From an uncultured Gemmatimonadales bacterium (lineage in GTDB: Bacteria; Gemmatimonadota; Gemmatimonadetes; Longimicrobiales; RSA9), in assembly GCA_963741945.1 (NCBI GenBank), contig CAVUKA010000003.1:128001-192000 (forward strand): 64,000 bases of DNA, in the 5' to 3' direction. Under the pieces are notes generated by a model. It was not told the DNA's origin and made no database searches. It saw only the letters and a program-made list of their open reading frames with translations. Positions 2,313-48,772 of this stretch are shown in pieces; the stretch's first letter is position 1; every line of letters starts with the position of its first letter. The translations under genes and the position numbers were made by a program.

Positions 2313-2327
2313 GCCCGGGACCGGCGA

Positions 2328-4334
2328 GTGTCCGAGCCCGAAGAAGTCATCATCGAGGCCGCCCACGCGGTTACGGGCGTCGCCGCCCGCGTCTGGCGGA
2401 GTCAATCGCGGCTGGCGCGGCCGGATTCGCTGCGCCTCGAGGACGTGCGCAGCCGGCTCGAGGTGGTGCTCCACGCCCTCTTCCGTCACCCGTTCCATCT
2501 CGAGCCCGCTGAGCCCCCGCTGGCGCCCAACCTCTTCCGCCGCATCGCCGGCCGCATCCCGCACCACCTGGCCCGCCCGGCTCTCGTGGCCTGGAATGAT
2601 GGTGACCGGCTGGCGCTGCCGCCCGAGATCCCCCGCCGTGCCCCGGGCTCCGATGCACCGCTCGCCCGCTATCGGCTCCTCGCCATCCAGCAGGCGGCGA
2701 GGATCCGGCGGGGGACCGCTGCCGTGGCGACCCGGGCTCCTTCCCTGCTCACCCGGGACCTCTTCCTCCTGGCCGAGGCGCGGGCTGTCGACCTCGCCCT
2801 CGCCCGCGACTTCCCCGGCCTCCTCGGCGGCCTGGATGCCGCCCGCAGCGCCAGCGCCCGACAGATCGCCAGCGAGCGTGCGGCCGCGCTCTCCGCTCCC
2901 GAGCAGTGGCTCCGCCAGCTCAGAGGCGAGGTCCTGTCGAAGGACGCCGCCGACCCGGACGGCCCCATCCCCGTGCTCGCTTCGCCGGAGGAGGCGCTGC
3001 ACTGGGCCCTGGACCACACCGCCCGGGCCCCTGACCCCGACGACTATCGCGGGCTCCCCGCCGTTCCGATCTGGGGTGATGTCCGCGCGCCGTCCTCGAT
3101 CCGGGGAGAGCCGGGCGAAGCCTCGCCCGAGGGCGCCGCGTCGAAGCGCACGACCACGCTCCGACGCCGGCCGCAGGTCCGCCCGGCCCGCCCCGACGAG
3201 GATGACGAGCGTCCCGGCATTTGGGGCTTCCCGCACGATGACCCCCAGGAGAGCGTCGAGGATCCCATGGGCCTCCAGCGCCCGGCAGACCGTGACGCCG
3301 ACGCCGACACCGACGACCTCGCCGATGCGTTCTCCGACCTCCCGGAGGCACGCCTCATCCGCACGCCGGGCGAGCCCGCCGAGGTGCTCCGCGGTCCGGC
3401 GCCGCTGCGGCTGCTCCGTGACGCCGCCCGGACGCCGGCGGCCACCGGCGTCGCATACCCCGAGTGGGACTACCGCGAGGAATCCTACGTGGAGCCGGGC
3501 GCTGTGGTCCGCATCCGGGACGCGGGTGAGATCGACGCGGATTGGGCCGCCTCCGCCCTGCACCGGCAGCGGCGGCTGCTGCTGCAGGTCCGACGCCGCT
3601 TCGAGCGCCTGCGCCTCGAGCGCGTCCATATCGACCGGCAGCCCGACGGCCCGGACGTCGACATCGCCGCGTACGTCCGCGCATTCGCCGATCAGGCGGC
3701 CGGCGGCGTGGTCGACGACCGGTTCTACCGCGACGTCCGCCGATCGCGACGCGAGCTGGCGCTCATGCTCCTCGTGGACGTGAGCGCGTCCACCGATTCA
3801 TGGGTGAGCGGGGGCCAGCGCATCATCGACGTGGAGAAGGACTCCCTCCTCCTGGTGGCGGAGGCGCTCTCCGCCCTGCGCGAGCGTTTCGCCATCCTCT
3901 CCTTCTCCGGCGCGGGCCCCGAGCACGTGGTGGTGCGTCGGATCCAGGATTTCGACGAGCCCACCGGCGAGGCCGTCCATGCCCGCATCGGTGGACTTCA
4001 CCCCGAGCGCTTCACGCGCGTGGGCGCGGCTCTCCGCCACGCTACCGCCCGCTTGAGTCGGGAGCCGGCACGGCATCGTGTCCTCCTGCTCATCTCCGAC
4101 GGCAAGCCCAACGACGACGATGTCTACGAGACCCGCTACGGCGTCGAGGACACCCGCCAGGCCGTGGCCGAGGCTCGCCTCCAGGGCATCCACCCGTTCT
4201 GCATCACCGTGGACCGCGACGCCTCCGCCTATCTGCCGCGCATGTTTGGGCCCGACAGCTACGCCGTCATCCGGCATCCCGCCCGCCTCCCGCACATCCT
4301 GGTCGACTTCGTCCGCCAGCTCCACACGCGCTGA
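2328..4334 (+). CDS. norD: NorD family nitric oxide reductase activation protein (C-terminal VWA domain)
   Basis: YPEWDY, MIDAS DVSAST, TRVGAALRHA, LISDGKPND and YGVEDTRQAV motifs; follows norQ. GTG start. Confidence 0.88.
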   Translation: MSEPEEVIIEAAHAVTGVAARVWRSQSRLARPDSLRLEDVRSRLEVVLHALFRHPFHLEPAEPPLAPNLFRRIAGRIPHHLARPALVAWNDGDRLALPPEIPRRAPGSDAPLARYRLLAIQQAARIRRGTAAVATRAPSLLTRDLFLLAEARAVDLALARDFPGLLGGLDAARSASARQIASERAAALSAPEQWLRQLRGEVLSKDAADPDGPIPVLASPEEALHWALDHTARAPDPDDYRGLPAVPIWGDVRAPSSIRGEPGEASPEGAASKRTTTLRRRPQVRPARPDEDDERPGIWGFPHDDPQESVEDPMGLQRPADRDADADTDDLADAFSDLPEARLIRTPGEPAEVLRGPAPLRLLRDAARTPAATGVAYPEWDYREESYVEPGAVVRIRDAGEIDADWAASALHRQRRLLLQVRRRFERLRLERVHIDRQPDGPDVDIAAYVRAFADQAAGGVVDDRFYRDVRRSRRELALMLLVDVSASTDSWVSGGQRIIDVEKDSLLLVAEALSALRERFAILSFSGAGPEHVVVRRIQDFDEPTGEAVHARIGGLHPERFTRVGAALRHATARLSREPARHRVLLLISDGKPNDDDVYETRYGVEDTRQAVAEARLQGIHPFCITVDRDASAYLPRMFGPDSYAVIRHPARLPHILVDFVRQLHTR

Positions 4335-4350
4335 CCCCGCCACCCTGACG

Positions 4351-4409
4351 GGCCCGGCCGTTGCCCCCTCCGCGCCGCTGCGCGCTCGGAATGGAACTTG
4401 CCCCCTCCG
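4351..4409 (+). promoter_or_regulatory. Two tandem sigma54-like -24/-12 elements sharing a 12-bp direct repeat
   Basis: GG-CCCGGCCGTT-GC (4351-4364) and GG-AATGGAACTT-GC (4388-4401). TTGCCCCCTCCG is repeated at 4361-4372 and 4398-4409, upstream of the ASRT operon. Confidence 0.35.
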
Positions 4410-4511
4410 TAGCCGGACGAGCGGGCACCGACTCCCCCACCAGATCGCCGACGGGCAGGGCGGGAAGCCGGGCTCGCGACCCCGTGGATCCTCGGGTGGA
4501 GGCGGACCGTC

Positions 4512-4898
4512 ATGGCACGTGCAGTCGGATCGAAGGTCTGGGCGATCGCGGAAGGATACATTCCCGACTGGAGCAACGGGCCCGAGCCCCAGATGACCTC
4601 GCACGAGACCGCCTGCCTCCTCAACACCACCGACCACGACGCCGAAGTCCGGATCACCCTCTACTTCTCCGATCGGGAGCCCGTCGGGCCGTACATCATC
4701 CCGCTCCCCGCCCGGCGAACGAAGCACGTCCGCTTCAACGAGCTGGAAGAGCCGGAGCCGGTCCCCCGCGCCACGGACTACGCCAGCGTCATCGAATCCG
4801 ATGTGCCGATCGTCGTCCAGCACTCCCGGTTGGACTCCCGCCAGGCCGAGAACGCCCTGCTCAGCACCATCGCATACGCCGACTCGAACCCCACATAG
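4512..4898 (+). CDS. Anabaena sensory rhodopsin transducer (ASRT) family protein
   Basis: 128 aa with WAIAEGYIP, SHETACLLN, ARRTKHVRFNEL and ESDVPIVVQHSRLDSRQ motifs typical of the family; GGAGG RBS upstream. Confidence 0.85.
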   Translation: MARAVGSKVWAIAEGYIPDWSNGPEPQMTSHETACLLNTTDHDAEVRITLYFSDREPVGPYIIPLPARRTKHVRFNELEEPEPVPRATDYASVIESDVPIVVQHSRLDSRQAENALLSTIAYADSNPT

Positions 4899-4902
4899 CG
4901 CC

Positions 4903-6723
4903 ATGAGCCAGACTGTCGCCGATTTCATGCTCGAACGTCTCCACGAATGGGGCATCAGCCGCATCTACGGCTTCCCCGGAGATGGCATCAACGGGATCAT
5001 GGGCGCCCTCGAGCGCGCCGAAGGGACGGAGCGCGAGATGGAGTTCGTCCAGGCGCGCCACGAGGAGCTCGCCGCGTTCATGGCGTGCGCCCACTCCAAG
5101 TTTTCCGGCGAGGTGGGCGTCTGCCTCGCCACCTCGGGGCCCGGCGCCATCCACCTCCTGAACGGGCTCTACGATGCCAACATGGACCACCAGTCGGTGG
5201 TGGCCATCGTCGGCCAGCAGGACAGCAAGGCGCTGGGCGGGGACTACCAGCAGGAGGTCGATCTGGGCGTCCTGTTCAAGGACGTGTCCCATCATTACGT
5301 CCACACATGCGCCAACCCCGCGCAGATGCGGCACCTGGTGGACCGCGCCGTGCGCATCGCGAAAGCCGAGCGCACCGTTACCACGATCATCATCCCGAAC
5401 GACGTCCAGGAGATGCCGGCCGTGCCGACACCCCCACGACAGCACGGCACCGTCCATTCCGGCGTGGGCTACCGCTTCCCGCGCGTGGTCCCGGAGAGCG
5501 ATGATCTCCAGGAGGCGGCGAACATCCTGAACGGGGCGGAGAAGGTGGCCATCCTCGTCGGCGCCGGTGCGCTCGGCGCCACGGAGGAGGTCATGCAGGT
5601 CGCGAACGTGCTCGGGGCCGGCGTGGCGAAGGCGCTCCTCGGAAAGGCCGTCCTCGACGACTCGCTCCCCTACGTCACCGGCTCCATCGGCCTCCTCGGC
5701 ACGCGCCCGAGCTGGAACCTCATGAGCGACTGCGATGGGCTCCTGGTCATCGGCTCCAGCTTCCCCTACTCCGAGTTCCTGCCGAAGGAGGGCCAGGCGA
5801 AGGCGGTCCAGATCGACATCGAGCCGCGCATGCTCGGCCTCCGCTATCCCATGGACGTCAACCTTCACGGCGACGCCAGGGCCACGCTCCAGGAGCTCAT
5901 CCCGCTCCTCGAGGAGAAGGGCGACCGGAGCTGGCGCAAGAAGATCGAGGAGGACGTCGCCGATTGGTGGAACGTGCTGGACGAACGCGCCCGGCGCGAC
6001 GCCGACCCCATCAACCCGCAGCGCGTCTTCTGGGAGCTTTCGCCCAAGCTGCCGCGCGACGTCATCCTCGCCTCCGACTCCGGCTCCTCCGCCAACTGGT
6101 GGGCCCGTGACCTCAAGGTGAAGCCCTCCATGATGGCGTCGCTGTCCGGGAACCTGGCCACCATGGGGCCCGGCGTTCCCTACGTCATCGCCGCCAAGTT
6201 CGCCTGGCCCGGCCGCCCCGCCATCGCCATGGTCGGCGACGGGGCCATGCAGATGAACGGCATCAACGGCCTCATCACCATCGCCAAGTACTGGAAGAGC
6301 TGGGATGACCCGCGGCTCATCATCGGTGTCCTCAACAACCAGGACCTCAACCAGGTCACGTGGGAGCAGCGCGTCCTGGCCGGCGACGCCGAGTACCCCA
6401 TCACCCAGGACGTCCCCGACTTCCACTTCGCCGAGTACGCCCGCCAGCTGGGCCTCGGCGGCACCCGCGTGGAAACCCCCAACCGGATCGCCGATGCCTG
6501 GGACGAGGCGCTCAGCGCGGACCGCCCGTTTGTCGTAGAATTCGTGACGGACCCGAACGTGCCACCGCTGCCTCCGCACATCACGATCCAGCAGGCCCGG
6601 CACTTCTGGAAGTCGATGCTCAAGGGAGACCCGCACATGGTGGGCGTGTTCAAGCAGACGGCCAAGGACATGTTCTCCTCCGTCGCGGGACGCGTGCCCG
6701 GAGTGGGATCGAGCGACGAGTGA
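4903..6723 (+). CDS. Thiamine diphosphate-dependent enzyme, pyruvate oxidase/dehydrogenase (PoxB)-like
   Basis: Start reassigned to ATG 4903 (MSQTVADF). Motifs: YGFPGDGING, QARHEE, TSGPGAIHLLNGLYDA and the ThDP motif GDGAMQMNG...LNN. Confidence 0.9.
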   Translation: MSQTVADFMLERLHEWGISRIYGFPGDGINGIMGALERAEGTEREMEFVQARHEELAAFMACAHSKFSGEVGVCLATSGPGAIHLLNGLYDANMDHQSVVAIVGQQDSKALGGDYQQEVDLGVLFKDVSHHYVHTCANPAQMRHLVDRAVRIAKAERTVTTIIIPNDVQEMPAVPTPPRQHGTVHSGVGYRFPRVVPESDDLQEAANILNGAEKVAILVGAGALGATEEVMQVANVLGAGVAKALLGKAVLDDSLPYVTGSIGLLGTRPSWNLMSDCDGLLVIGSSFPYSEFLPKEGQAKAVQIDIEPRMLGLRYPMDVNLHGDARATLQELIPLLEEKGDRSWRKKIEEDVADWWNVLDERARRDADPINPQRVFWELSPKLPRDVILASDSGSSANWWARDLKVKPSMMASLSGNLATMGPGVPYVIAAKFAWPGRPAIAMVGDGAMQMNGINGLITIAKYWKSWDDPRLIIGVLNNQDLNQVTWEQRVLAGDAEYPITQDVPDFHFAEYARQLGLGGTRVETPNRIADAWDEALSADRPFVVEFVTDPNVPPLPPHITIQQARHFWKSMLKGDPHMVGVFKQTAKDMFSSVAGRVPGVGSSDE

Positions 6724-7829
6724 CGCGCGCGGCCGGAGGCGTGCCCGTCCGGAGCGTTGAGGTGGGCGCCTACACCGTGCCCACCGACGCGCAGCCGGAG
6801 TCCGACGGAACCCTGGCGTGGGACTCCACGACCATCGTGGTCGTGCACGTCCACGCGGGCGACCGTGTGGGGATCGGCTATGTATACAACCACGCCGCAA
6901 CGGCGCGGGTGATCCGTGACAAGCTCGCGGGCATCGTCGAGGGGATGGACGCGCTGGACACCGGACGCTGCTGGGACGCCATGCGGGCGGCAGTCCGGAA
7001 CATGGGCAGTCGCGGCATCGCATCGGCGGCGTACTCGGCGCTGGACATGGCGCTCTGGGACGTCAAGGCCAAGCTCTTCGAGGTGGCGCTGGTTTCACTG
7101 CTCGGAGCCCGGCGCGACGCCGCCCCCATATACGGGAGTGGCGGCTTCACGTCCTACACCATCGAGCAGCTCCGCGACCAGCTCGGGCGATGGGTGCACG
7201 GGTCGGGGATCCCGCGGGTCAAGATGAAGATCGGCCGCGAGCCGTCGCAGGACCCGACGCGGGTGGCCGAGGCGCGGGACGCCATCGGCCCCGCCGCCGA
7301 GCTGTTCGTGGACGCCAATGGCGCGTACGACCGGCGTCAGGCGCTGGCGCTGGCCGCCCGCTTCGCGGAGCAGGACGTGACGTGGTTCGAGGAGCCCGTG
7401 AGCTCCGACGACCGGGACGGGCTCCGCTTCATCCGCGAGCGCACCCCGGCCGCCATGCGGGTCACCGCCGGCGAGTACGGCTGGAGCGAGTTCCACTTCC
7501 GCGACATGTTGCGGGACGGTGCCGTGGACGTGCTTCAGCCCGATGCCACCCGCTGCGGCGGGTACACCGGCTTCCTGCGCGTCGCGCACCTGTGCGCGGC
7601 CTGGAACACGCCCATCTCGGCCCACACGGCGCCCCAGATCCACGCCCACGTCGCGTGCGCGGCGCCCGGGCTCCTGCACCTGGAGTACTTCCACGACCAT
7701 GATCGGATCGAGCACATGTTCTTCGACGGCGTGCTCGAGCCGGAGGGCGGCGCGCTGCGCCCGGACCGATCCAGGCCTGGAAACGGACTGCACTTCAAGG
7801 GAGAGGACGCGGAGCGCTTCCGCGCCTGA
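6720..7829 (+). CDS. Enolase superfamily enzyme, mandelate racemase subgroup (probable acid-sugar dehydratase/racemase)
   Basis: GTG 6720 overlaps the upstream TGA. KxK motif (VKMKIG), metal ligands DANG / WFEEP / AGEY, and QPD plus SAHT forming the His-Asp dyad. Confidence 0.87.
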   Translation: MTRAAGGVPVRSVEVGAYTVPTDAQPESDGTLAWDSTTIVVVHVHAGDRVGIGYVYNHAATARVIRDKLAGIVEGMDALDTGRCWDAMRAAVRNMGSRGIASAAYSALDMALWDVKAKLFEVALVSLLGARRDAAPIYGSGGFTSYTIEQLRDQLGRWVHGSGIPRVKMKIGREPSQDPTRVAEARDAIGPAAELFVDANGAYDRRQALALAARFAEQDVTWFEEPVSSDDRDGLRFIRERTPAAMRVTAGEYGWSEFHFRDMLRDGAVDVLQPDATRCGGYTGFLRVAHLCAAWNTPISAHTAPQIHAHVACAAPGLLHLEYFHDHDRIEHMFFDGVLEPEGGALRPDRSRPGNGLHFKGEDAERFRA

Positions 7830-7852
7830 GGCCAACATAGAAGGGACCTACC

Positions 7853-10800
7853 ATGGCGACACTGATCCGGTCGGGACAGCCGACGCGCCCCAGCCACTCC
7901 GGCGGAGCTGCGGCCATCGAAGCCACGGACCTCGAGCGGGCGCTGCGCGCGGTGATCAAGGGCGAGGTTCGCTTTGACAGCCAGGCGCGGGCCATGTATC
8001 AGACCGACGCGTCCAGCTACCGTCAGATCCCTGTCGGCGTGGTGCTCCCCCGCGACGCCGAGGACGTCAGGAACACGGTCCGCCTCGCCCGCGAGCACCG
8101 CGCCCCCATACTCGGCCGCGGCGGCGGCACCAGCCTGGCCGGCCAGTGCTGCAACGCGGCCGTCGTGCTCGACTTCTCGAAGTACATGAACCAGGTCCTG
8201 GAGGTGAACGTTCAGGAGAAGTGGGCGCGCGTTCAGCCGGGGACCGTTCTCGATCACCTCCGTGATGCCATCGAGGGCACGGGACTGACCTACGGACCCG
8301 ACCCCGCCACCCACAGCCGCTGCACCCTGGGCGGCATGATCGGCAACAACTCGTGCGGAATCCATTCGGTGCAGGCGCAGCATTACGGCCCTGGCCCGCG
8401 CACCGAGGACCAGGTGCTCGAGCTCACGATCCTGACCTACGATGGTGAGGTGCTCACTGTCGGTCCCACCAGCGATGACGAGATGGAGCGCATCATCGCG
8501 GGCGGCGGCCGGCGCGGCGAGATCTATCGCGGCCTCCGTGACCTGCGCGACCGCTACGCAGACGAGATCCGCGCCCGCTACCCGGACATTCCCCGCCGGG
8601 TCTCGGGCTACAACCTCCCGTCGCTCCTGCCGGAGAACGGGTTCGACGTGGCAAAGGCGGTGGTCGGCTCCGAGAGCACGTGCGTGCTCGTGCTGGAGGC
8701 CAAGGTCCGCCTCATCGACAATCCGCCGAAGCGCGCGCTCCTGATCATCGGTTACACCGACATCTATCACGCGGCCGACCACGTGATGGAGATCCAGAAG
8801 TACAAGCCGCTGGGGCTCGAGGGCATCGATGATGACCTGACGCAGTACATGAAGCTGAAGAAGCTGCACACCAAGCAGCTGAGGTACATGCCCGAGGGGC
8901 ACGGCTGGCTGTTCGTCGAGTTTGGCGGCGACACCACGGAGGAGGCCGAGTCCCGCGCGCGCTCCGCCATGGCGGAGCTGGAAGGGACGAGCGAGCACCT
9001 GCGGGAGATGAGGCTGTACACCGACGAGGAAGTCCAGCACCAGGTCTGGCAGGTCCGGGAGTCCGGGCTCGGGGCGACGGCGTTCGTACCGGGAATGCCC
9101 AGCGCGTGGGAGGGGTGGGAGGACGCGGCCGTTCCCCCCGAGCACGTGGGCGCATACCTGCGCGATTTCCGGGCCCTGATGCAGAAGTACGACTACACGG
9201 CCGCGCTGTACGGCCACTTCGGGCAGGGATGCGTGCACTGCCGCATCACCTTCGACTACGAGACCCGCAAGGGGCTCGACCAGTACCTCGCCTTCATCAA
9301 TGAGGCCGCCGATCTCGTCCTCAGCTACGGCGGATCCCTGTCCGGCGAGCACGGCGACGGCCAGAGTCGCGGCTCGCTCCTGCCGAAGATGTTCGGTGAG
9401 GAGCTGATGGAAGCGTTCCGCGAGTTCAAGCGGATCTGGGATCCGGAGTGGATGATGAACCCGGGGAAGGTGGTGGACGCCTATCCGCCCGACTCCAACC
9501 AGTTTTTCGGCGTGGACTACAACCCCGGGAACGTGAAGACCCACTTCAACTTCCCCCACGACAAGTTCGCGTTCCAGAACGCCACCATCCGGTGCGTGGG
9601 CGTGGGCAAGTGCCGGCGGACCGACGGCGGAACCATGTGCCCGTCGTACATGGTCACGCGCGATGAAAAGGATTCCACGCGCGGGCGGGCACGGCTGCTC
9701 TACGAGATGCTCAGGGGCGACGTCATTCACGACGGGTGGAAGAGCGAGGAAGTGAAGGACGCCCTGGACCTCTGTCTGTCGTGCAAGGGGTGCAAGGGCG
9801 ACTGCCCCGTGAACGTGGACATGGCCACATACAAGGCCGAGTTCCTGTCGCACTACTACGAGGGCCGGCTGCGGCCGCGCTACGCGTATTCCATGGGACT
9901 CATCGACTGGTGGGCGCGCGCCGCCCAGGTCTCCCCCGCCCTGGTCAACTGGGTCATGAGCGCGCCGGGGCTGTCGACCGTGGTGAAGAAGATCGGCGGC
10001 ATCGCCACGCAGCGGGACATGCCGCCGTTCGCCGAGCAGACGTTCCGCCAGTGGATGGACGTGCGCGGCCCTTCCACGGTCGAGGGCCGGCGCGTGATTG
10101 TCTGGCCGGACACGTTCAACAACTACTTCCACCCCGAGATCGGCCGCGCCACGGTGGAAGTCCTCGAGGGCGCGGGCTTCCACCCGGTGCTCCCGGATGA
10201 ACAGATCGCCACCGGGCGCGCGCTCTACGATTATGGCATGTTGCGCCTGGCGAAGCGGCAGCTCCGGCGCATCATGGACGAGCTGCGCGAAGAGATCCGC
10301 GATGGCACCCCCATCATCGGCATGGAGCCCAGCGTGGTTTCCGTCTTCCGCGACGAGCTCCTCAACCTCTATCCCCATGACAAGGACGCGGAGCGGCTGA
10401 GCAAGCAGACGTACATGCTGACCGAGTTCCTCGACCGCTACGGCGACGATGTGGACCTCGGCAGCCTCTCGGGCGAGCACGCCATCGTCCACGGCCACTG
10501 TCATCACAAGTCCGTGCTTGACTTCGACAGCGAGCGGCACATCCTCGATCGCCTCGGGATCGACTACGAGGTCCTGGAATCCGGCTGCTGCGGCATGGCC
10601 GGCTCCTTCGGCTTCGAGGAGGGCCACTTCGATGTCTCCCAGGCCGCCGCCGAACGCGTCCTGCTGCCCGCCGTCCGCAAGGCGGACCCGCGCACCCTCG
10701 TGATCACGGACGGGTTCTCCTGTCGCGAGATGCTGGAGCAGAACCGTCTGAGGCGGCCGCTCCATACCGCCGAAGTGATCCACATGGCCATGGAACGGTC

Positions 10801-10948
10801 CGGCACGCTGCCATCCCCCGCTCGACGTGCTCGCGCCCTGCGTCGCACCGGGGATCGGTCACCCGTTTCCTCGGCCGCGCTGGTCGCTGCGGGCCTCGCC
10901 GCCGGGTTCCTGGTCTACCGGGCCGCCGCCGCGCTCCGCCGCAGCTGA
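7853..10948 (+). CDS. FAD-binding and Fe-S-binding oxidoreductase (GlcD/GlcF fusion, YdiJ/D-2-hydroxyacid dehydrogenase-like)
   Basis: RGGGTSLAGQ, TLGGMIGNNSCG, GHFGQGCVH, SGEHGDG, CLSCKGCKGDCP and GCCGMAGSFG motifs; hydrophobic C-terminal tail. Confidence 0.9.
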   Translation: MATLIRSGQPTRPSHSGGAAAIEATDLERALRAVIKGEVRFDSQARAMYQTDASSYRQIPVGVVLPRDAEDVRNTVRLAREHRAPILGRGGGTSLAGQCCNAAVVLDFSKYMNQVLEVNVQEKWARVQPGTVLDHLRDAIEGTGLTYGPDPATHSRCTLGGMIGNNSCGIHSVQAQHYGPGPRTEDQVLELTILTYDGEVLTVGPTSDDEMERIIAGGGRRGEIYRGLRDLRDRYADEIRARYPDIPRRVSGYNLPSLLPENGFDVAKAVVGSESTCVLVLEAKVRLIDNPPKRALLIIGYTDIYHAADHVMEIQKYKPLGLEGIDDDLTQYMKLKKLHTKQLRYMPEGHGWLFVEFGGDTTEEAESRARSAMAELEGTSEHLREMRLYTDEEVQHQVWQVRESGLGATAFVPGMPSAWEGWEDAAVPPEHVGAYLRDFRALMQKYDYTAALYGHFGQGCVHCRITFDYETRKGLDQYLAFINEAADLVLSYGGSLSGEHGDGQSRGSLLPKMFGEELMEAFREFKRIWDPEWMMNPGKVVDAYPPDSNQFFGVDYNPGNVKTHFNFPHDKFAFQNATIRCVGVGKCRRTDGGTMCPSYMVTRDEKDSTRGRARLLYEMLRGDVIHDGWKSEEVKDALDLCLSCKGCKGDCPVNVDMATYKAEFLSHYYEGRLRPRYAYSMGLIDWWARAAQVSPALVNWVMSAPGLSTVVKKIGGIATQRDMPPFAEQTFRQWMDVRGPSTVEGRRVIVWPDTFNNYFHPEIGRATVEVLEGAGFHPVLPDEQIATGRALYDYGMLRLAKRQLRRIMDELREEIRDGTPIIGMEPSVVSVFRDELLNLYPHDKDAERLSKQTYMLTEFLDRYGDDVDLGSLSGEHAIVHGHCHHKSVLDFDSERHILDRLGIDYEVLESGCCGMAGSFGFEEGHFDVSQAAAERVLLPAVRKADPRTLVITDGFSCREMLEQNRLRRPLHTAEVIHMAMERSGTLPSPARRARALRRTGDRSPVSSAALVAAGLAAGFLVYRAAAALRRS

Positions 10949-10954
10949 CCGGCC

Positions 10955-12847
10955 ATGCCCAGCAACGGGCCCGAGGAGCGCCGGACCGGTCAGCCCTCCA
11001 TCGACGATTACGGCGTGATCGGCGACTGCAGGACCGTGGCGCTGGTCTCCCGTGGCGGGTCCATCGACTGGTACTGCATTCCTCGCTTCGAGGGACCATC
11101 GGTGTTCGCTGCGCTGCTGGACACCGAGAAGGGTGGCTCCTTCTCCATCCGCCCCGTCGGCCCGTTCGATACGGAACGCCGCTACCTGCCGGGGACCAAC
11201 GTTCTGGAGACCACGTTCCGCACCGCCGGCGGCACCCTGCGGCTCACCGACGCCATGACGCTGCCGCAGAGCCAGGCCCATGGGAGAGAGCCCTTCCCGG
11301 ACCACGAGATCCTCCGGCTCGCCGAGTGCCTCGATGGCCAGGTGGAGCTGGAAGTGGTCTGTGATCCTCGCTTCGACTACGGACGCAGGACGCCGAAGGG
11401 CCGGGAGCTCGGCCGCTTCGGAATCCACTTCGACGGTGGCGCTCACACGCTCCTGCTCCGCTCCGACATCCCCGTCCATCGCCGGGAGGGCGCGCCAGGG
11501 TGGGTGGGCCGTGGCACGGTCAGCGCCGGTGAGCGACGCTATGTGTCCCTGGCCTCCGAGCTGGCGCGCCCCGTGATCGGACTGGAGCTCGGAGCCGCCG
11601 CGGACGCCCGGATCGAGGGCACGGCGGCGTGGTGGAAGAAGTGGCTGACCCAGTGCTCCTATGAAGGCAGGTACAGCGAGCAGGTGCTCCGGAGCATGCT
11701 CACGCTGAAGCTGCTCGTGTTTCCTCCATCCGGAGCCATTGTCGCGGCTGGCACCACATCGCTCCCGGAAGTCCCCGGTGGCGTCCGCAACTGGGACTAC
11801 CGCTTCTGCTGGCTCCGGGACGCGTCCATGACCACCGAGGTCCTGCTTCACAGCGGCTTCACCGCCGAGGGCGAGGCGTTCCTCGGATGGCTGCTCCACG
11901 CCACCCGCCTGACGCGACCGAAGCTGCAGGTCCTCTACGATGTCTACGGCCGGACCCGGCACCCCGAGCGCAACCTGTCCCATCTGGCGGGCTATCACGG
12001 CTCGAGCCCCGTTCGCGTGGGCAACGGCGCGGCCGGTCAGCTCCAGATGGACGTGTACGGCGAGGTGATCCGCGCCGCGTGGACGTTCGTCGAGCAGGGC
12101 GGTCAGCTGGACGGCGCCGAGGCCAGCATGCTCGGAGACCTGGGCGAGACGATCATGAAATGGTGGAAGCGCCCGGGCAACGGGATCTGGGAGCTGCGTG
12201 GCGACCGCCACCACTTCACGCAATCACTGGCCATGTGCTGGGTCGGCCTCCACTGCCTCACCCGCCTCGATGACGACGGCGCCGTCAAGCTGAAGCGACC
12301 GCGCGAGAAGGTCGATGCCGTGAAGCAGGCCATCCGCGACGCCATTGACGCCGAAGGGTGGAGCGAGGAGTTGGAGAGCTACGTCGCCTGGTTCGGCAGC
12401 GACCACGTGGACGCCGCCCTGCTGCTCCTGGGCATCATGGGCTACGAGGATCCCGGCAGTGACCGCATGCGCAAGACGCTCGAGCGCGTGGATGACCGCC
12501 TCGGCGTCCGCGGCCTCCTGTATCGGTATCGCTATGACGACCACCTGCCGGGGCAGGAGGGTGCGTTCGGGATCTGCGGCTTCTGGAAGGCGGAGCTGCT
12601 CGCCCAGCAGCGACGACTCCGTGAGGCCGTGGACGCCTTCGAGCACTCCTGCTCCTTCGCCAACGACCTGGGCCTCTTCTCCGAGGAGATCGATCCGGAG
12701 AACGGCGCGCTCCTCGGCAACTTCCCCCAGGCCTTCACGCACATCGGACTGGTCAGCGCCGCCAACGAGATCGCACGCGCACGTGGCAAGCCACCGGAAA
12801 AGGCAGCGAAGAAACCCGAGACGACCCGAGCCCAGCCCGAACCATGA
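10955..12847 (+). CDS. Glycoside hydrolase family 15 (trehalase/glucoamylase-like)
   Basis: IDDYGVIGDCRTVALV N-terminal domain, NWDYRFCWLRDA, GIWELRG, LGLFSEEI and GNFPQAFTH motifs. Confidence 0.92.
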   Translation: MPSNGPEERRTGQPSIDDYGVIGDCRTVALVSRGGSIDWYCIPRFEGPSVFAALLDTEKGGSFSIRPVGPFDTERRYLPGTNVLETTFRTAGGTLRLTDAMTLPQSQAHGREPFPDHEILRLAECLDGQVELEVVCDPRFDYGRRTPKGRELGRFGIHFDGGAHTLLLRSDIPVHRREGAPGWVGRGTVSAGERRYVSLASELARPVIGLELGAAADARIEGTAAWWKKWLTQCSYEGRYSEQVLRSMLTLKLLVFPPSGAIVAAGTTSLPEVPGGVRNWDYRFCWLRDASMTTEVLLHSGFTAEGEAFLGWLLHATRLTRPKLQVLYDVYGRTRHPERNLSHLAGYHGSSPVRVGNGAAGQLQMDVYGEVIRAAWTFVEQGGQLDGAEASMLGDLGETIMKWWKRPGNGIWELRGDRHHFTQSLAMCWVGLHCLTRLDDDGAVKLKRPREKVDAVKQAIRDAIDAEGWSEELESYVAWFGSDHVDAALLLLGIMGYEDPGSDRMRKTLERVDDRLGVRGLLYRYRYDDHLPGQEGAFGICGFWKAELLAQQRRLREAVDAFEHSCSFANDLGLFSEEIDPENGALLGNFPQAFTHIGLVSAANEIARARGKPPEKAAKKPETTRAQPEP

Positions 12848-13317
12848 ACGTCATTGACACGCTCATATGGGGCGGTGTCGCCACCGTGCTCATGACCACG
12901 ATCCTCGAAGGGGCCATGTACATGGGCTGGACGCGGATGAGCCTCCCCTTCATCCTCGGCACCTTCCTCACGGGAGACCGCCGCAAGGCACCCGTATTCG
13001 GCGCCGTGATGCACATCGCGAACGGCTACATCTTCGCCTTCGGCTACGCGTTCGCCTTCCAGAGCGTGGGCATGGCGAACTGGTGGTTCGGCGCCGTTCT
13101 GGGTGTGGTCCACAGCACCGTGGTCCTCGTGCTCATGCCCTTCCTGCCCGGCATACACCCGCGCATGGCCACTGAACAGGCCGGCCCCGACGCGCGCAGG
13201 GCTCTCCAGCCGCCCGGCTACTTCGCCCTCAACTACGGCCGCCGCACTCCGCTCTTCGGGCTTGCGTCGCACGTGGTCTTCGGGCTCATCATGGGGGTCT
13301 TCTATCACCTGGCCTGA
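12844..13317 (+). CDS. Hypothetical 4-TM membrane protein with intramembrane His residues
   Basis: 157 aa, four hydrophobic segments; ATGA overlap with the GH15 stop; H57, H90 and H143 lie in or near helices. Confidence 0.75.
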   Translation: MNVIDTLIWGGVATVLMTTILEGAMYMGWTRMSLPFILGTFLTGDRRKAPVFGAVMHIANGYIFAFGYAFAFQSVGMANWWFGAVLGVVHSTVVLVLMPFLPGIHPRMATEQAGPDARRALQPPGYFALNYGRRTPLFGLASHVVFGLIMGVFYHLA

Positions 13318-13338
13318 GTGCCCCGGAAGGCGCCCCCG

Positions 13339-13887
13339 TCATCGCTCCGCCTCCGCTTCTCCCTCCCCTCTCGGCTCGTCCTCCCGGATCACGCTGATCT
13401 TGCCGTTCGGCTCCAGGAAGACGGTCCGGACCCCCTCCAGTGACGTGACTCCGGCCTCCCGCAGCTTCTCCCACACGTCGTCCTCCGTCAGCAGCGCGCG
13501 GTGCGCCTGGCGCCGGACGATCCGCCCATCGCGCACGATTGCGCGGGGACTGGAGCGGAGGAACGGCCGCAGCACGGGGAAACGGAGCGAGAGCAGGTTC
13601 ACGGCCGTGTGGCAGGCGATCAGTGTGAGGAAGGTGATGGCGCCGTCCACCACGCCCGGGTATTGACCCGTCAGCGCTTCCCGCACCGAGGTGGCCAGCA
13701 GGAAGATGATAAGCAGGTCGGCCACCGTGAACCGCCCTACCTCACGCTTCGGCAGCGCCCGCAGGATCGCGAAGAGCAGCAGGTAGATGCTCGCCGCGCG
13801 CACCACCAGCTCGAGGATCGGTCCGTGCGGCATGAACACGGGGCCCCAGTCATCGGGCAGCCAGCGCACCTCTGTAGCCATCATCAC
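13339..13887 (-). CDS. DUF421 (YetF-like) membrane protein
   Basis: Three TM helices, then PRAIVRDGRI...LTEDDVWEKLREAG...FLEPNGKISV. Start overlaps the antiporter stop; the exact start among 13887/13884/13881 is uncertain. Confidence 0.8.
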   Translation of the reverse strand: MMMATEVRWLPDDWGPVFMPHGPILELVVRAASIYLLLFAILRALPKREVGRFTVADLLIIFLLATSVREALTGQYPGVVDGAITFLTLIACHTAVNLLSLRFPVLRPFLRSSPRAIVRDGRIVRRQAHRALLTEDDVWEKLREAGVTSLEGVRTVFLEPNGKISVIREDEPRGEGEAEAER

Positions 13888-15203
13888 GTCACCTCCCGCC
13901 TCTCGTCTTCACCGAGGAGCGCCCGCTTCACGACCGGGTCCACCTCCCACCGCTCGGCCGCCGCCATGCGCGCTACGCGCCGCCTGACCAGCCGCTCCAC
14001 CGTCAATCCCTGCACGAGGATGGAGAACACCACCACCACGTACGTGATGGCCAGCACCAGGTCCCGCTCCGGAGCCGGTGGGATCGACAGCGCCAGGGCG
14101 ATGGCGATCCCGCCACGCAGGCCGCTCCACGTCAGGATCCGGACCGTGTACGGCTTCACGGCTCGCCGGATCCGCACCACCGAGATGGGCAGCCCCACAC
14201 TGGCGAGGCGGGCGGCCAGCACGATCGGGATCGCCACCAGGCCGGCCACCACCAGCCGCCAGCTCAGCTCCAGGGCGATCACTTCCAGCCCGATGATCAG
14301 GAACAGGATCGCGTTCAGGGTCTCGTCCACAACGATCCAGAACTTGTCCAGGTGATCGCGCGTGGTCTCCGACATGGCGAACGCGCGCCCCCTGTTCCCC
14401 ACCAGCAGCCCCGCCACCACCATCGCCAGCGGCCCGGACGTGTGGAGCCGCGTAGCCAGCGCGTACCCGCCCGTAACAACGGCGAGAGTGATCATGACTT
14501 CCACCGTGTGCTGGTCCACCTGCTTCAGCAGGAGATAGGCACCGTAGCCCAGCACCAACCCGTAGACCAGCCCGCCGATCGCTTCCCATGCGAACAGCTC
14601 CGCGACCTCGGCGGGGGACGTGGCACCGGAGACCAGCACGCCCAGGATCGCGGTGAACACCACTACCCCGACGCCGTCGTTGAACAGCGATTCGCCACTG
14701 ATCAGGACGCGGAGGTCCTCCGGCGCATGGACCCGGTTCAGGACTGCCAGCACGGCCACCGGGTCCGTCGGTGAGATCAGGGCGCCGAAGAGCAGAGCGT
14801 AGACGAAGGGGAGCGGGACGCCTACCGCCCGGGCCGCCACCCAGACCAGCGTCCCGACCAGGAACGTCGAGATCACCACTCCCACCGTGGCCAGCAGCAG
14901 CACCATCACGCGCTGCTCCATCAGAGCATTCACTTCCACGCCCAGCGCGCCAGCGAAGAGCATGGCGCCCAGCAGCCCGTTCAGCAGCAGCTCGTTGAAG
15001 TCCAGGCCACCCATCACCTCGCGGGCGAACGTCCCCTCGACACCCAGGAGATGCAGCTTTCCGAACGCCAGCAGCGCCAGCGAGAAGAGGAGTCCGCCGA
15101 GAGTCACGCCCACCACGGGCACCACCCCGATCCACCGCTCGTTCACCCACCCCAGCAGTGCCGTCAGGGTGACGAGGATGGCCACAAGCTCGAATGCCGT
15201 CAC
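13884..15203 (-). CDS. Na+/H+ antiporter, CPA1 (NhaP) family
   Basis: FGALISPTDPVAV, GESLFNDGVGVV and TWSGLRGGIAIALAL motifs. Start reassigned to GTG 15203 (MTAFELVAIL). Confidence 0.88.
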   Translation of the reverse strand: MTAFELVAILVTLTALLGWVNERWIGVVPVVGVTLGGLLFSLALLAFGKLHLLGVEGTFAREVMGGLDFNELLLNGLLGAMLFAGALGVEVNALMEQRVMVLLLATVGVVISTFLVGTLVWVAARAVGVPLPFVYALLFGALISPTDPVAVLAVLNRVHAPEDLRVLISGESLFNDGVGVVVFTAILGVLVSGATSPAEVAELFAWEAIGGLVYGLVLGYGAYLLLKQVDQHTVEVMITLAVVTGGYALATRLHTSGPLAMVVAGLLVGNRGRAFAMSETTRDHLDKFWIVVDETLNAILFLIIGLEVIALELSWRLVVAGLVAIPIVLAARLASVGLPISVVRIRRAVKPYTVRILTWSGLRGGIAIALALSIPPAPERDLVLAITYVVVVFSILVQGLTVERLVRRRVARMAAAERWEVDPVVKRALLGEDERREVT

Positions 15204-15246
15204 GATCCCATCACACGGTGCGGGGAACCGGGCGCCAGCGCCCATC

Positions 15247-15263
15247 GCAGGAACAGTTCCTGC
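15247..15263. promoter_or_regulatory. Perfect palindrome between divergent genes; reads as a sigma54-like GG-N10-GC on both strands, or a TF operator
   Basis: GCAGGAAC-A-GTTCCTGC, located between the antiporter (minus) and DUF296 (plus) start codons. Confidence 0.45.
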
Positions 15264-15305
15264 TCTTCTGTGCAGGCGCGATCGGACCCGCAACGAAAGG
15301 AACGG

Positions 15306-15755
15306 ATGCGTGTGACCGAGTTGCGTCGCGACGAACGGCGCGTGGACCTGGCCCTCGTTCTCGACACCGACGACGAGTTCATTTCGACGCTCGAGGAATT
15401 CGCCCGGGACAACGATATCACGGCCGCCCACTTCACCGCTCTCGGCGCGTTCCGCCGCGCCACGCTCGCCTACTTCGACTGGGAGCGTAAGGACTACCGT
15501 GACCTCCCCGTCCCGGAGCAGGTGGAGGTCACTTCACTCGTCGGCGATATCGGCGTTCACGACGCGCAGGTCAAGGTGCACGCCCATGGCGTGCTCGCCA
15601 GGAGCGACGGGTCAACCGTGGCCGGCCACGTCCGTGAGGCCCATGTCCGTCCCACGCTCGAGCTCTTTCTCACCGCCTATCCCGGCGCGGCGCTCACTCG
15701 CGTGAAGGACCCGGAAACCGGCCTCGAACTGATACATGGAGAAGATGCAGCATGA
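15306..15755 (+). CDS. PPC domain (DUF296) protein
   Basis: ATG 15306 after GAAAGG; FTALGAF, EVTSLVGDI, HAHGVL, AGHV and VRPTLELFL motifs. Confidence 0.85.
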   Translation: MRVTELRRDERRVDLALVLDTDDEFISTLEEFARDNDITAAHFTALGAFRRATLAYFDWERKDYRDLPVPEQVEVTSLVGDIGVHDAQVKVHAHGVLARSDGSTVAGHVREAHVRPTLELFLTAYPGAALTRVKDPETGLELIHGEDAA

Positions 15756-16753
15756 GCAGTGATCGAGAAGTCGTCGTCATTACCGGGGCTACAGCCGGTG
15801 TCGGCCGCGCCACCACTCGGCGGTTCGCCCGGGAGGGTGCCCGCATCGCGCTCCTGGCCCGTGACCGAGAGCGTTTGGAGGCCACGGCCCGGGAGGTGGA
15901 GGAGCTCGGTGGTGAGGCGCTCGTCCTGTCGGTGGACGTGGCCGATGCCGAGGCGGTACAGACCGCGGCCGACCTCACCGTCGAGCGGTTCGGCCACATC
16001 GACATCTGGGTGAACAACGCCATGACTTCCGTGTTCGCCCGCGTCCAGGAGATCAAGCCCGAGGAGTTCAGGCGGGTCACCGAAGTCAACTATCTCGGCT
16101 TCGTATACGGCACGCTCGCCGCGCTCAAGCACATGCTGCCGCGCGACCGCGGCCACATCGTCCAGGTCGGCTCCGCGCTGGCCTGGCGGGGCATACCCCT
16201 GCAGGCGCCGTACTGCGGCTCCAAGCACGCCATTCTCGGCTTCACCGAGTCGCTCCGCACCGAGCTGATCCACGATGGGAGCAACGTGAAGGTGAGTATC
16301 GCCCATATGCCCGGCATGAACACGCCCCAGTTCGAGTGGGTCCGGTCGAGGCTGCCCAACAAGGCGCAGCCGGTCCCGCCCATCTACCAGCCGGAAGTGG
16401 CCGCCGACGCGATTCACTGGGCGGCCCACCACGACCGCGCCATTCTCTACGTCGGGATGCCCACATTGAAGACCGTGGCCGGAGAACGCGTCTCGCCTCG
16501 CATGCTCGACTACTATCTTGCCAGGACCGGCATCAGCTCGCAGCAGACGCAGGAGCCCCGGGACCCCGACGCGCCGGACAACCTCTTCGAGCCGGTCCCC
16601 GGCGACTTCGCCGCCCACGGCCGCTTCGACCGCCGCGCGCACGGCCACAGTTCGCAGCTCTGGGCATCCACCCACAAGGGCTGGCTCGCTCTGGCTGGTG
16701 GCGCCGTCGCCATCGCCGCAGCAGGCGCGGCAGGGCTCCTGGCCCGCGACTGA
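15752..16753 (+). CDS. Short-chain dehydrogenase/reductase with C-terminal hydrophobic tail
   Basis: TGATAGVG, WVNNA, catalytic Ser (VGSAL) and YCGSK; ATGA overlap with DUF296. Confidence 0.92.
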   Translation: MSSDREVVVITGATAGVGRATTRRFAREGARIALLARDRERLEATAREVEELGGEALVLSVDVADAEAVQTAADLTVERFGHIDIWVNNAMTSVFARVQEIKPEEFRRVTEVNYLGFVYGTLAALKHMLPRDRGHIVQVGSALAWRGIPLQAPYCGSKHAILGFTESLRTELIHDGSNVKVSIAHMPGMNTPQFEWVRSRLPNKAQPVPPIYQPEVAADAIHWAAHHDRAILYVGMPTLKTVAGERVSPRMLDYYLARTGISSQQTQEPRDPDAPDNLFEPVPGDFAAHGRFDRRAHGHSSQLWASTHKGWLALAGGAVAIAAAGAAGLLARD

Positions 16754-16810
16754 CGCTCCCCGACTGGACGGCGCCTCCGCTCTCCCCCAGAATTCGCTGG
16801 CGGAGGTGCC

Positions 16811-17653
16811 ATGGGAACCACGGAAAGACCAGAGCCGCGCCTCGGCCTCGCCCTCGGGGGTGGGGCCGTGCTCGGCTTCGCCCATGTCGGGGTCCTGATG
16901 GAGCTCGAGCGCGCGCGGATCCGGCCCGCCGCCGTGACGGGGACGAGCGCAGGCGCCATCGTGGCCGCGCTCCTCGCGTTCGGCTCCTCGCCGGAGCGCA
17001 TGCGGGACCTCGTCGCCCCGCTGACCTGGCGGAAGGTCTCCAACTTCTCCGCCAGCTCACTCGGCCTCGTCTCGAACGAAGCGCTCGCCGAGCTGCTCCG
17101 TGACGAGCTCGGCGACGTCCGGATCGAGGACGCGCCCGTTCCGCTCGCCATCATTGCCGCGGACATCCATACCGGCGACCCGGTCGTCTTTCGCGATGGT
17201 CCGCTGGCCGAAGCGGTGAGAGCCAGCGCTGCCATCCCGGGGATCTACACGCCCGTCCAGATCGGAGATCGGCTGCTGGTCGATGGCGGGATCGTGGAGA
17301 ACGTACCCGTCCGCCCCCTCAAGCAGATGGGTGTGGACGTGATCGTGGCCGCCACACTCGGCGAAGTCCTGGACTTCCAGCCGGTCCGAACGCTCCTCGG
17401 GGTGCTGACGAACGCGTTCCTGACCGCCGTGAACACGGCCACCCGGCTGGACCTGATGGAGGGTGTCGACGTGGTGATCGCGCCCGATCTCGTGGTCCAC
17501 AACCGCTGGGACATGCGGCAGCGCGAGGAGATCATCGAAAAGGGACGCGCCGCCGCCGCGGCCGCCATCCCGGACATCCTCGCCGCCCTCGATCGCGTCA
17601 GCGCCGCGAAAGCAGGATCGACCCCACCCACCCGCCCACCCGGTCACGCGTGA
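16811..17653 (+). CDS. Patatin-like phospholipase
   Basis: LGGGAVLG, GTSAG nucleophile and DGG motifs; GGAGG RBS. Confidence 0.9.
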   Translation: MGTTERPEPRLGLALGGGAVLGFAHVGVLMELERARIRPAAVTGTSAGAIVAALLAFGSSPERMRDLVAPLTWRKVSNFSASSLGLVSNEALAELLRDELGDVRIEDAPVPLAIIAADIHTGDPVVFRDGPLAEAVRASAAIPGIYTPVQIGDRLLVDGGIVENVPVRPLKQMGVDVIVAATLGEVLDFQPVRTLLGVLTNAFLTAVNTATRLDLMEGVDVVIAPDLVVHNRWDMRQREEIIEKGRAAAAAAIPDILAALDRVSAAKAGSTPPTRPPGHA

Positions 17654-43340: not shown

Positions 43341-43355
43341 GGGCACGGCCGTTGC
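43341..43355 (+). promoter_or_regulatory. sigma54-like promoter upstream of the LEA gene
   Basis: GGGCAC-GGCCG-TTGC, about 57 nt before ATG 43412. Confidence 0.45.
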
Positions 43356-43411
43356 CCGCCGCTCGACCCTATGCTGGCGAACAGAACCGCGCCCGAACCA
43401 GGGAGACCTCC

Positions 43412-48510: not shown

Positions 48511-48772
48511 TCCGTCCCCACTGAACCGCAAGGTGCGCCGGCGCGCGGACCGGATCCCCCGATGGCGCAGCGGCAGTTTCGCTTCTCTCTGCTCCGGTAC
48601 ACAACGCGTGCCGCCTGGCGCTGCCGATACGGCAGAGCCCTGGCGGCGCAGAGATGGCCCGAGCGCCGCCCCGTCGCCGACCGGTCGTGCCGGCTGTGCT
48701 GAAGCCGCCGCATCGGTATCTTGTCTCGGGCAGGTTTCGAGCGCACTGCGGTGGAGCCATGAGCGAGAAAGC

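Follow-up and report, generated by a model that had tools for sequence, protein, structure and literature searches.

The mandelate pathway of Pseudomonas putida consists of the racemase MdlA, the (S)-mandelate dehydrogenase MdlB and the benzoylformate decarboxylase MdlC. Enzymes of the mandelate racemase (MR) subgroup of the enolase superfamily are racemases, epimerases or dehydratases, and the membrane-bound FAD gluconate 2-dehydrogenase is built of a GMC flavoprotein, a PF13618 small subunit and a cytochrome c. The closest described gene neighborhood is that of De Souza, Iyer and Aravind (2009, PMC2739507), who, in the passages of that paper on these operons, describe ASRT-like genes that share predicted operons with a pyruvate decarboxylase/oxidase, a dehydratase/racemase for sugar acids and a glycolate oxidase-related FAD oxidoreductase, Rubrobacter xylanophilus included, as one of several contexts of ASRT, and propose ASRT as a sugar sensor. 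Here we analyze a gene cluster with the same core, namely a PoxB-like thiamine diphosphate (ThDP) enzyme, an MR-subgroup enzyme (hereafter MR) and a fused FAD/Fe-S dehydrogenase, in a stretch of 64,000 nucleotides from an uncultured Gemmatimonadales bacterium (contig CAVUKA010000003.1, positions 128,001 to 192,000), which is referred to as a whole as the window.

The core neighborhood has been known since 2009 and each of its enzymes comes from a known superfamily, with none reaching the cutoff of a characterized family among those tested. Beyond the passages mentioned, we find that ASRT is an optional member of the cluster (24 of 80 loci), that GMC and LarA-family proteins displace two of the core enzymes, that ASRT is fused to proteins of the accessory families GH15, PCC and SDR, and that the cluster is linked to terminal oxidase genes. 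Our literature searches, which included stress-response, EcfG regulon and RHA1 starvation/desiccation contexts, gave no published function for the cluster. Our preferred reading, to which we assign a probability of about 0.45, is that it is a module for the respiratory oxidation and decarboxylation of a 2-hydroxy acid at the membrane; the reactions of this module are all inferred, as are its electron acceptor and its substrate.

A gene cluster recurring across bacterial phyla

In the window the cluster opens with a block of six plus-strand genes separated by 4, -4, 23, 6 and -4 nt: an ASRT gene, the ThDP enzyme (4903..6723, 606 amino acids), MR (6720..7829, 369 amino acids), the FAD/Fe-S dehydrogenase (7853..10948, 1031 amino acids), a glycoside hydrolase of family 15 (GH15) and a small membrane protein weakly resembling DUF1440. 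A pair of genes for a PCC/DUF296 protein and a short-chain dehydrogenase/reductase (SDR) follows nearby. These positions, directions and gaps had been given in a first-pass annotation made from the letters alone, and the open reading frame (ORF) coordinates confirm them; all domain assignments were upheld by Pfam and NCBIfam profile searches. The starts of the ThDP and MR genes are backed by end-to-end alignments to the structures of PoxB (3ey9) and of 3cyj, respectively.

Species-representative genomes were scanned with an alignment of 15 ThDP sequences, which yielded at least 595 relatives, and the best 80 of them, top-scoring and not random, were retained together with flanks of up to 10 kb per side. 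The window proteins were then searched by tblastn (E<=1e-10, merged high-scoring segment pairs, at least 40% coverage and, for SDR, at least 45% identity). MR was found in 51 of the 80 loci, immediately downstream of ThDP on the same strand in 43 and divergent upstream in four. A flavoprotein dehydrogenase was present in 52 loci, 46 of which also contain MR; this was the FAD/Fe-S enzyme in 38 cases and a GMC oxidoreductase set in 14. SDR was found in 26 loci, GH15 in 25, ASRT in 24, PCC in 14 and the DUF1440-like protein in six, and in 15 loci ThDP had no cluster partner at all. Restricted to the 53 loci that have 9 kb or more on both flanks, the counts were 38 for MR, 27 for FAD/Fe-S, 11 for GMC, 22 for SDR, 21 each for GH15 and ASRT, 13 for PCC and seven for ThDP alone. 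Ten control genes from the window's flanks (COX1-like, CbbQ, VWA, YetF, Na+/H+ antiporter, patatin, CDP-alcohol transferase, CBS and two hypotheticals) were each found in 0 of the 80 loci. Because the cluster families recur in these loci and none of the controls does, the clustering exceeds chance. The first-pass annotation had made its proposed pathway depend on co-occurrence of the genes across genomes, and they do co-occur. Its remark that no transporter, kinase or aldolase is present also holds more widely, since none was recurrent in an unbiased clustering of the neighboring genes.

GH15 was enriched in loci with MR (20 of 38 loci, against one of 15 without MR; Fisher p=0.002), as was ASRT (21 of 38 against 0 of 15; p=0.0001), and no significant enrichment was seen for SDR (p=0.065) and PCC (p=0.31). 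Two arrangements can be distinguished. Type I, to which the window belongs, is [ASRT]-ThDP-MR-FAD/Fe-S-[ASRT]-[PCC-SDR]-[GH15-DUF1440], and type II is [ASRT]-ThDP-MR-membrane protein-PF13618 small subunit-GMC oxidoreductase-[GH15][SDR][PCC]. In locus L085, from a plasmid of Granulicella tundricola, a protein of the cyclase family (13097-13840) separates MR from the membrane/GMC set.

The 80 loci cover at least 13 phyla: Pseudomonadota, Verrucomicrobiota, Acidobacteriota, Actinomycetota, Bacteroidota, Gemmatimonadota, Myxococcota, Chloroflexota, Planctomycetota, Binatota, Balneolota, Thermomicrobiota and Nitrospirota. A plasmid copy outside these loci adds Deinococcota. Plasmid records numbered 122 for ThDP and 37 for MR. 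When plasmids were searched the other way round, with MR as the seed, ThDP lay directly beside MR in all 13 examined of the 37 records (nine from listed coordinates and four from fetched regions).

Core enzymes and their predicted reactions

The ThDP enzyme has three TPP_enzyme domains in Pfam and passes the NCBIfam model of the PRK08273 family (NF006129; cutoff 724 bits, score 1009.7, with residues 1-595 on positions 1-591 of the 598 of the profile), and it fails the PoxB model (NF006591; 371.4 bits against 792). Its residues 1-574 align with residues 1-552 of the Escherichia coli pyruvate:ubiquinone oxidoreductase PoxB (3ey9) with 301 bits, and the alignment takes in the C-terminal PPxIxxxQA segment. 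It thus resembles PoxB in all three domains and in the segment preceding the membrane-binding peptide of PoxB, and differs from it in belonging to an uncharacterized family which is usually operonic with MR and unusually conserved. ThDP orthologs are 62-80% identical across phyla and the closest homologs, Gemmatimonadota assemblies among them, 77-80%. As to FAD binding, quinone reduction and lipid activation via the C-terminal peptide, which mark PoxB, the sequence offers similarity in the central domain and in the C-terminal segment. We predict that this enzyme is a 2-oxoacid:quinone oxidoreductase, i.e. an oxidative decarboxylase.

The MR enzyme contains the MR_MLE_N and MR_MLE_C domains (the latter with 200 bits). 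Its closest structure is 3cyj (420.7 bits), an uncharacterized protein with a generic name which we found in the literature only in an algorithm paper; mandelate racemase itself is matched with 89.7 bits. Its place in the MR subgroup follows from a KxK motif, three metal-binding carboxylates and an Asp-His dyad: K168, K170, D198, E224, E252, D275 and H302 are invariant in 28 orthologs, and their roles are presumably those of the counterparts in mandelate racemase, from which we assigned them. The model of L-talarate/galactarate dehydratase (NF047820) was failed with 178.4 bits against a cutoff of 500, and MR is far under the cutoffs of the arabinonate, rhamnonate and galactonate dehydratase models.

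In three of the 29 loci without MR its position is taken by a LarA-family protein. In two of these, both from Gemmatimonadales (L007 and L034), the LarA-like gene lies between ThDP and FAD/Fe-S, and in a locus from Phycisphaerae (L018) it is divergent, beside ThDP. The LarA-like proteins contain Lar_N and LarA_C domains (160.8 and 35.8 bits, respectively, in L034). All scores of the LarA-like proteins are under the family cutoffs: 266-280 bits for the malate racemase model (cutoff 500), 227-236 for lactate racemase and 87-92 for a putative hexonate epimerase. The match to Mar2 (PDB 6d6z) has 177 bits, with one Ni-ligand position aligning ambiguously. Thiamine, FAD and pyruvate oxidase contexts do not come up in a paper on LarA (PMC11770544). 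The activity common to both families is the inversion of C2 of a 2-hydroxy acid, so replacement of MR by LarA leads us to predict that MR is a 2-hydroxy-acid racemase/epimerase, or less probably a dehydratase. These three loci weaken the first-pass annotation in its reading of the enolase-family enzyme as an aldonate dehydratase.

The third core enzyme contains the domains PF01565 (FAD_binding_4), PF02913 (FAD-oxidase_C) and PF13183 (Fer4), a CxxCxxCxxxC motif at residue 641, a CCG motif at residue 912 and a hydrophobic segment at residues 1003-1022. It has the GlcD/GlcF-type architecture of a VAO-type FAD domain, a 4Fe-4S dicluster and a cysteine-rich CCG domain, the Pfam model of the last giving no hit at E<=0.001. 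Residues 631-981 match the GlpC model (158.6 bits, cutoff 278), and the N-terminal half matches structures of LctD, D-lactate dehydrogenase and glycolate oxidase (9qgz, 106 bits). The GlcD model was matched with 218.6 bits against a cutoff of 567.9. According to PMC9504171, E. coli YdiJ is a D-2-hydroxyglutarate dehydrogenase. The cluster enzyme resembles YdiJ in length class, in the FAD_binding_4, FAD-oxidase_C and 4Fe-4S dicluster domains and in a GlpC/CCG-like C-terminal half. It failed the YdiJ model (NF049975; 509.1 bits against 1350, best stretch residues 32-621) and belongs to a paralogous family. A C-terminal hydrophobic segment was present in 13 of 25 full-length orthologs by a crude hydropathy test. 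It is predicted to be a membrane-associated D-2-hydroxy-acid dehydrogenase.

In the type II loci the same position is occupied by a GMC oxidoreductase, its PF13618 small subunit and a membrane protein, and this set (14 loci) and FAD/Fe-S (38 loci) were never found together in the 80 loci. A quick MR tree was made with the 30 of 51 sequences that had clean full-length ORFs. On this tree the dehydrogenase type switches at least four times, and two of the switches are forced by well-supported branches; for example, L010 (GMC) and L015 (FAD/Fe-S) form a Verrucomicrobiota sister pair with 100% support. Owing to this mutual exclusion and to the switches, the two dehydrogenases look interchangeable within one orthologous system. 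Type II shares the GMC and PF13618 subunits with the gluconate 2-dehydrogenase type and differs from it in the third gene, whose product, in place of a cytochrome c, is a multi-pass membrane protein lacking the CxxCH heme-binding motif. A twin-arginine motif was absent in two of the three PF13618 subunits checked, and in the third it lies near the start of a probably over-extended N-terminus. The mostly absent twin-arginine motif and the membrane partner lacking heme motifs suggest that the GMC set is a cytoplasm-facing membrane complex.

In the module that we propose, MR would interconvert the C2 stereoisomers of a 2-hydroxy carboxylate, and the membrane-associated FAD/Fe-S/CCG enzyme would oxidize one of them to the 2-oxo acid, passing two electrons to the quinone pool. 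The PoxB-like enzyme would convert the 2-oxo acid into CO2 and a carboxylate one carbon shorter, with two more electrons going to quinone, so that each substrate molecule would deliver four. Both displacements, of FAD/Fe-S by GMC and of MR by LarA, favor this order of racemase/epimerase, dehydrogenase and oxidative decarboxylase over a dehydratase route. The scheme is similar to the mandelate pathway, in which a racemase, a stereospecific membrane flavoprotein dehydrogenase and a ThDP enzyme also follow each other and with which it has two superfamilies in common. It differs in its dehydrogenase, a VAO-type FAD/Fe-S/CCG fusion or a GMC enzyme in place of an FMN enzyme, in a PoxB-like ThDP enzyme which is presumably oxidative and FAD-containing and not a simple decarboxylase, in having no aldehyde dehydrogenase conserved with the cluster, and in the low similarity of MR to mandelate racemase.

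The substrate could be a short 2-hydroxy acid, e.g. lactate, or a sugar-derived aldonate. The frequent solitary occurrence of ThDP suggests that its 2-oxo acid is a common metabolite, which favors small acids such as pyruvate and lactate, and the GMC/PF13618 alternative together with the sugar-linked accessory genes keeps aldonates among the candidates. A DJ-1/PfpI gene was observed in or beside the cluster in three loci, L053 (11823-12404, between ThDP and MR), L037 and L048; if its product were a glyoxalase III, D-lactate would be formed, in agreement with lactate as the substrate.

Accessory genes, respiratory links and the surrounding window

The accessory genes, i.e. ASRT, GH15 plus the small membrane protein beside it, and PCC paired with a probably membrane-anchored SDR, would tie the module to carbohydrate mobilization and may supply or signal its substrate. 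The window ASRT (4512..4898, plus strand, 128 amino acids) is a small beta-sandwich protein that matches PF07100 with 188.5 bits (gathering threshold 25) and the Anabaena ASRT structure 2ii7 over residues 2-125 with 197.7 bits. No rhodopsin gene was present among the 15 ORFs scanned in 46-17653, which include both flanks of ASRT, nor among 32 further ORFs of the window; the genes around ASRT code for metabolic enzymes. In all 24 of its loci ASRT occurs together with MR, directly before ThDP in 10 and directly after FAD/Fe-S in 11. We predict that it is a sensor of a small molecule or a sugar, the ligand possibly being an alpha-glucoside or glucose. A complex prediction for ThDP and ASRT scored 0.00 against a mark of 0.32, which is no verdict, and was used neither for nor against any reading.

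We also searched for longer ASRT-containing proteins in databases and checked 12 of them with Pfam. Complete fusions were found with GH15 (P0143, P0145), a GH13 alpha-amylase-family enzyme (P0159), SDR (P0171), PCC (P0154, P0167, P0168) and a BON domain (P0144), in addition to a tandem ASRT (P0127). Fragments of MR, ThDP and GMC next to ASRT (P0146, P0182 and P0172) are truncated domains and may be artefacts of assembly or gene calling. Tandem two-domain ASRT proteins of about 263 amino acids are numerous (P0121-P0142), one cluster having 88 member sequences. The fusions to GH15, PCC and SDR support the view that the accessory genes belong to one system, and those to GH15 and GH13 support the link to sugars. 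They fit the sugar-sensor proposal in the cited passages of PMC2739507.

GH15 (10955..12847, plus strand, 630 amino acids) has a catalytic domain (PF00723, 195.5 bits, gathering threshold 22) and a trehalase-like N-terminal domain (TREH_N, PF19291, 47.1 bits), as have the archaeal GH15 trehalases of the TreH1/TreH2 models. It differs from them in score, since TreH1 (NF041084), its best NCBIfam match, was failed with 356.4 bits (cutoff 820), and no solved structure was matched by phmmer at E<=1e-10. Its substrate may be trehalose, whose mobilization from stores after stress the first-pass annotation suggested, or another alpha-glucan or dextran. GH15, SDR and PCC are all facultative, and their position and orientation vary (upstream, downstream, on either strand). 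The DUF1440-like ORF (12844..13317, plus strand, 157 amino acids) overlaps GH15 by 4 nt and is hydrophobic with three predicted membrane segments, and its match to PF07274 stays under the cutoff (24.4 bits against 34.7). It lies next to GH15 in five of its six loci, and in Deinococcus peraridilitoris a DUF1440 protein follows the GMC gene.

The PCC gene (PF03479, 94.5 bits) is often located right after FAD/Fe-S in its 14 loci. In the window its longest ORF (15051-15755) overlaps the ORF of an Na+/H+ antiporter on the opposite strand. This ORF is probably over-extended and the gene starts at 15306 (15306..15755, plus strand), because the PCC domain begins only at residue 101, AAGGAA precedes the ATG at 15306, and the resulting length of 150 amino acids agrees with that of relatives (median 149). 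The SDR gene (15752..16753, plus strand, 333 amino acids) overlaps it by 4 nt, and its product matches adh_short with 158 bits and passes the PRK07109 model (NF005495; 486.3 bits against 264). A C-terminal hydrophobic segment, at residues 311-331 in the window protein, recurs in 15 of 23 orthologous ORFs, which suggests that this SDR is membrane-anchored.

The first-pass annotation suggested that the route could feed the respiratory chain. This is supported by the PoxB alignment, by the CCG motif and hydrophobic segment of FAD/Fe-S, and by an operon for an aa3-type cytochrome c oxidase (CoxB-cyt c, CtaD, CoxC, SCO1) located within 10 kb in 14 of the 80 loci. In locus L084 (1-9812), from plasmid 1 of Nitrobacter hamburgensis, genes annotated as cytochrome c3, 4Fe-4S dicluster, NrfD and DUF3341, a set which we take to be an alternative complex III, are followed by the oxidase operon, with ASRT at the junction. 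Alternative complex III-like genes and an SCO1/aa3 oxidase operon were likewise observed beside the cluster in L012, L044, L062, L077 and L080. This suggests that in such loci a complete dedicated electron-transport chain is encoded beside it.

Several neighbors of the cluster in the window are of another kind. Directly upstream (46-4334, plus strand) lies a divergent gene resembling subunit I of heme-copper oxidases (PF00115, 201 bits, without a match in NCBIfam). Behind it come genes for a CbbQ/NorQ-type AAA ATPase and for a NorD-like VWA protein, and the trio looks like NOR-type or oxidase maturation genes. With 0 of 80 loci, the COX1-like, CbbQ/NorQ and VWA/NorD genes were rejected as parts of the system, and so were, with 0 of 80 each, the YetF gene (13339-13887, minus strand) and the Na+/H+ antiporter (13884 to about 15245, minus strand) that lie between the six-gene block and the PCC-SDR pair. 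YetF-domain and ferritin-like genes upstream of the cluster on the Granulicella tundricola plasmid echo the YetF gene of the window. A perfect 15-bp palindrome, CAGGAACAGTTCCTG, occupies 15248-15262 in the divergent gap between the probable starts of the antiporter (15245) and of PCC (15306). With 0 mismatches allowed it occurs only once in the window, and it is a possible operator site. A scan of the window for sigma-70 promoters gave 0 sites, and its seven terminator-like sites (3.8 expected) are not at operon ends.

The window, with a G+C content of 66-74%, is a chromosome stretch that also bears housekeeping genes. A selenocysteine synthase (SelA) gene, which shows that the organism uses selenocysteine, is found in a minus-strand gene pair (27689-29347 and 29119-30606). 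Since the longest SelA ORF shares about 230 nt with the downstream end of the adjacent Big_5/CarboxypepD_reg ORF, the true start of SelA probably lies further in. Stress-type genes are present at 33408-34100, 43352-43924 and 45886-49047, coding for a protein with a BON domain, a LEA_2 protein and a ClpB-like ATPase, the last with 1053 amino acids and an unusually long N-terminal extension.

Competing explanations and biological meaning

Several points weigh against a 2-hydroxy-acid module. The loci on which it is built are the best-scoring 80 of at least 595 relatives and their ORFs were called by a crude ORF picker. The nearest characterized relatives of MR are acid-sugar dehydratases, not racemases, and the LarA swap amounts to three loci, two of them from one order and all below family cutoffs. 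Since no cluster enzyme reaches the cutoff of any characterized isofunctional family tested, the scores do not reveal the substrate, and quinone, too, is an acceptor presumed by analogy. ThDP stands alone in 15 of the 80 loci, in seven of the 53 full-flank loci and on a Rhizobium plasmid that was examined, and can therefore work independently of its cluster partners.

Three other explanations were considered. In the route of the first-pass annotation, glucose released by GH15 would be turned into an aldonate, MR as an aldonate dehydratase would yield a 2-keto-3-deoxy acid, the ThDP enzyme would decarboxylate, and FAD/Fe-S would oxidize a hydroxy acid, all with no kinase and feeding respiration. 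The relatives of MR just mentioned, i.e. L-talarate/galactarate, arabinonate, rhamnonate and galactonate dehydratases, speak for it, and so do the gluconate 2-dehydrogenase type of the alternative dehydrogenase (GMC with PF13618 subunit), the enrichment of GH15 with MR (20 of 38 against one of 15), and an ASRT that is predicted as sugar-binding in the cited passages of PMC2739507 and fused to GH15 and GH13 enzymes. We nevertheless consider this route unlikely, given that the replacement of MR in three loci comes from a racemase/epimerase superfamily with no known dehydratases, that the LarA-like proteins score 227-280 bits with malate and lactate racemases against 87-92 with the hexonate epimerase, and that GH15 is missing from 55 of the 80 loci. 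The step from aldose to aldonate also fares badly, as neither an aldose dehydrogenase nor a lactonase is conserved. What stands of the annotated pathway is a real cluster, linked to respiration and free of kinases and transporters, and what falls into disfavor is its dehydratase step. The GlcD/GlcF-like enzyme could also be thought to make glyoxylate from glycolate, with the ThDP enzyme as a carboligase and not an oxidase, in accordance with the GlcD match (218.6 bits), the glycolate oxidase structure 9qgz (106 bits) and a detectable similarity of ThDP to glyoxylate carboligase (7ct6, 119 bits). This is highly improbable: ThDP is far closer to PoxB (301 bits), with which it shares the C-terminal segment, the GlcD score is far from the cutoff of 567.9, and glycolate has no stereocentre, so that a conserved racemase/epimerase, be it MR or LarA, would have no role.

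The third explanation concerns the extent of the system. ThDP, MR and the dehydrogenase alone could share a pathway, while GH15, DUF1440, PCC, SDR and ASRT would form a co-regulated stress/dormancy island, co-expressed and co-transferred, with no shared intermediates. It would explain the varying position and orientation of GH15, SDR and PCC, the many plasmid copies (122 ThDP and 37 MR records), the lack of significant enrichment of SDR and PCC with MR (p=0.065 and p=0.31), and the DUF892, DJ-1/PfpI, DUF1360, ECF sigma factor, YetF and ferritin-like genes that recur nearby, and the window itself has LEA_2, BON and ClpB-like genes. A functional link is nonetheless indicated by ASRT, which accompanies MR in 24 of 24 loci, and by complete fusions with GH15, PCC and SDR in independent database clusters; GH15 is significantly enriched with MR and in the window begins 6 nt after FAD/Fe-S. 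An unlinked island is in our opinion about as doubtful as the dehydratase route.

A bolder version can also be formulated, a self-contained, kinase-free respiratory route that would burn a sugar acid carbon by carbon. GH15 would free glucose, sensed by ASRT and converted to an aldonate; the dehydrogenase would oxidize C2, and the PoxB-like enzyme would remove C1 oxidatively as CO2, leaving the next shorter aldonate. An epimerase of MR or LarA type would reset the new C2 and so let a single stereospecific dehydrogenase act again, with all electrons flowing through a dedicated chain of quinone, alternative complex III and aa3 oxidase, encoded adjacently in some genomes. We regard this iterative version as a speculation with a slim chance of being correct.

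The ThDP family is widespread, with at least 595 relatives in species-representative genomes from more than 12 phyla and with frequent occurrence on plasmids, and many of these phyla are dominant soil groups, e.g. Verrucomicrobiota, Acidobacteriota and Gemmatimonadota. No characterized member was found, either of this family or of the two families that share its operon. Should the proposed module be real, it would be a common, overlooked route of soil bacteria by which electrons of a hydroxy acid, possibly sugar-derived, enter respiration directly, with no substrate-level activation. The ASRT family, whose name comes from a rhodopsin link confined to one cyanobacterial lineage, would gain a general metabolic role as well, and the two non-orthologous displacements narrow the substrate class that enzymologists could screen.

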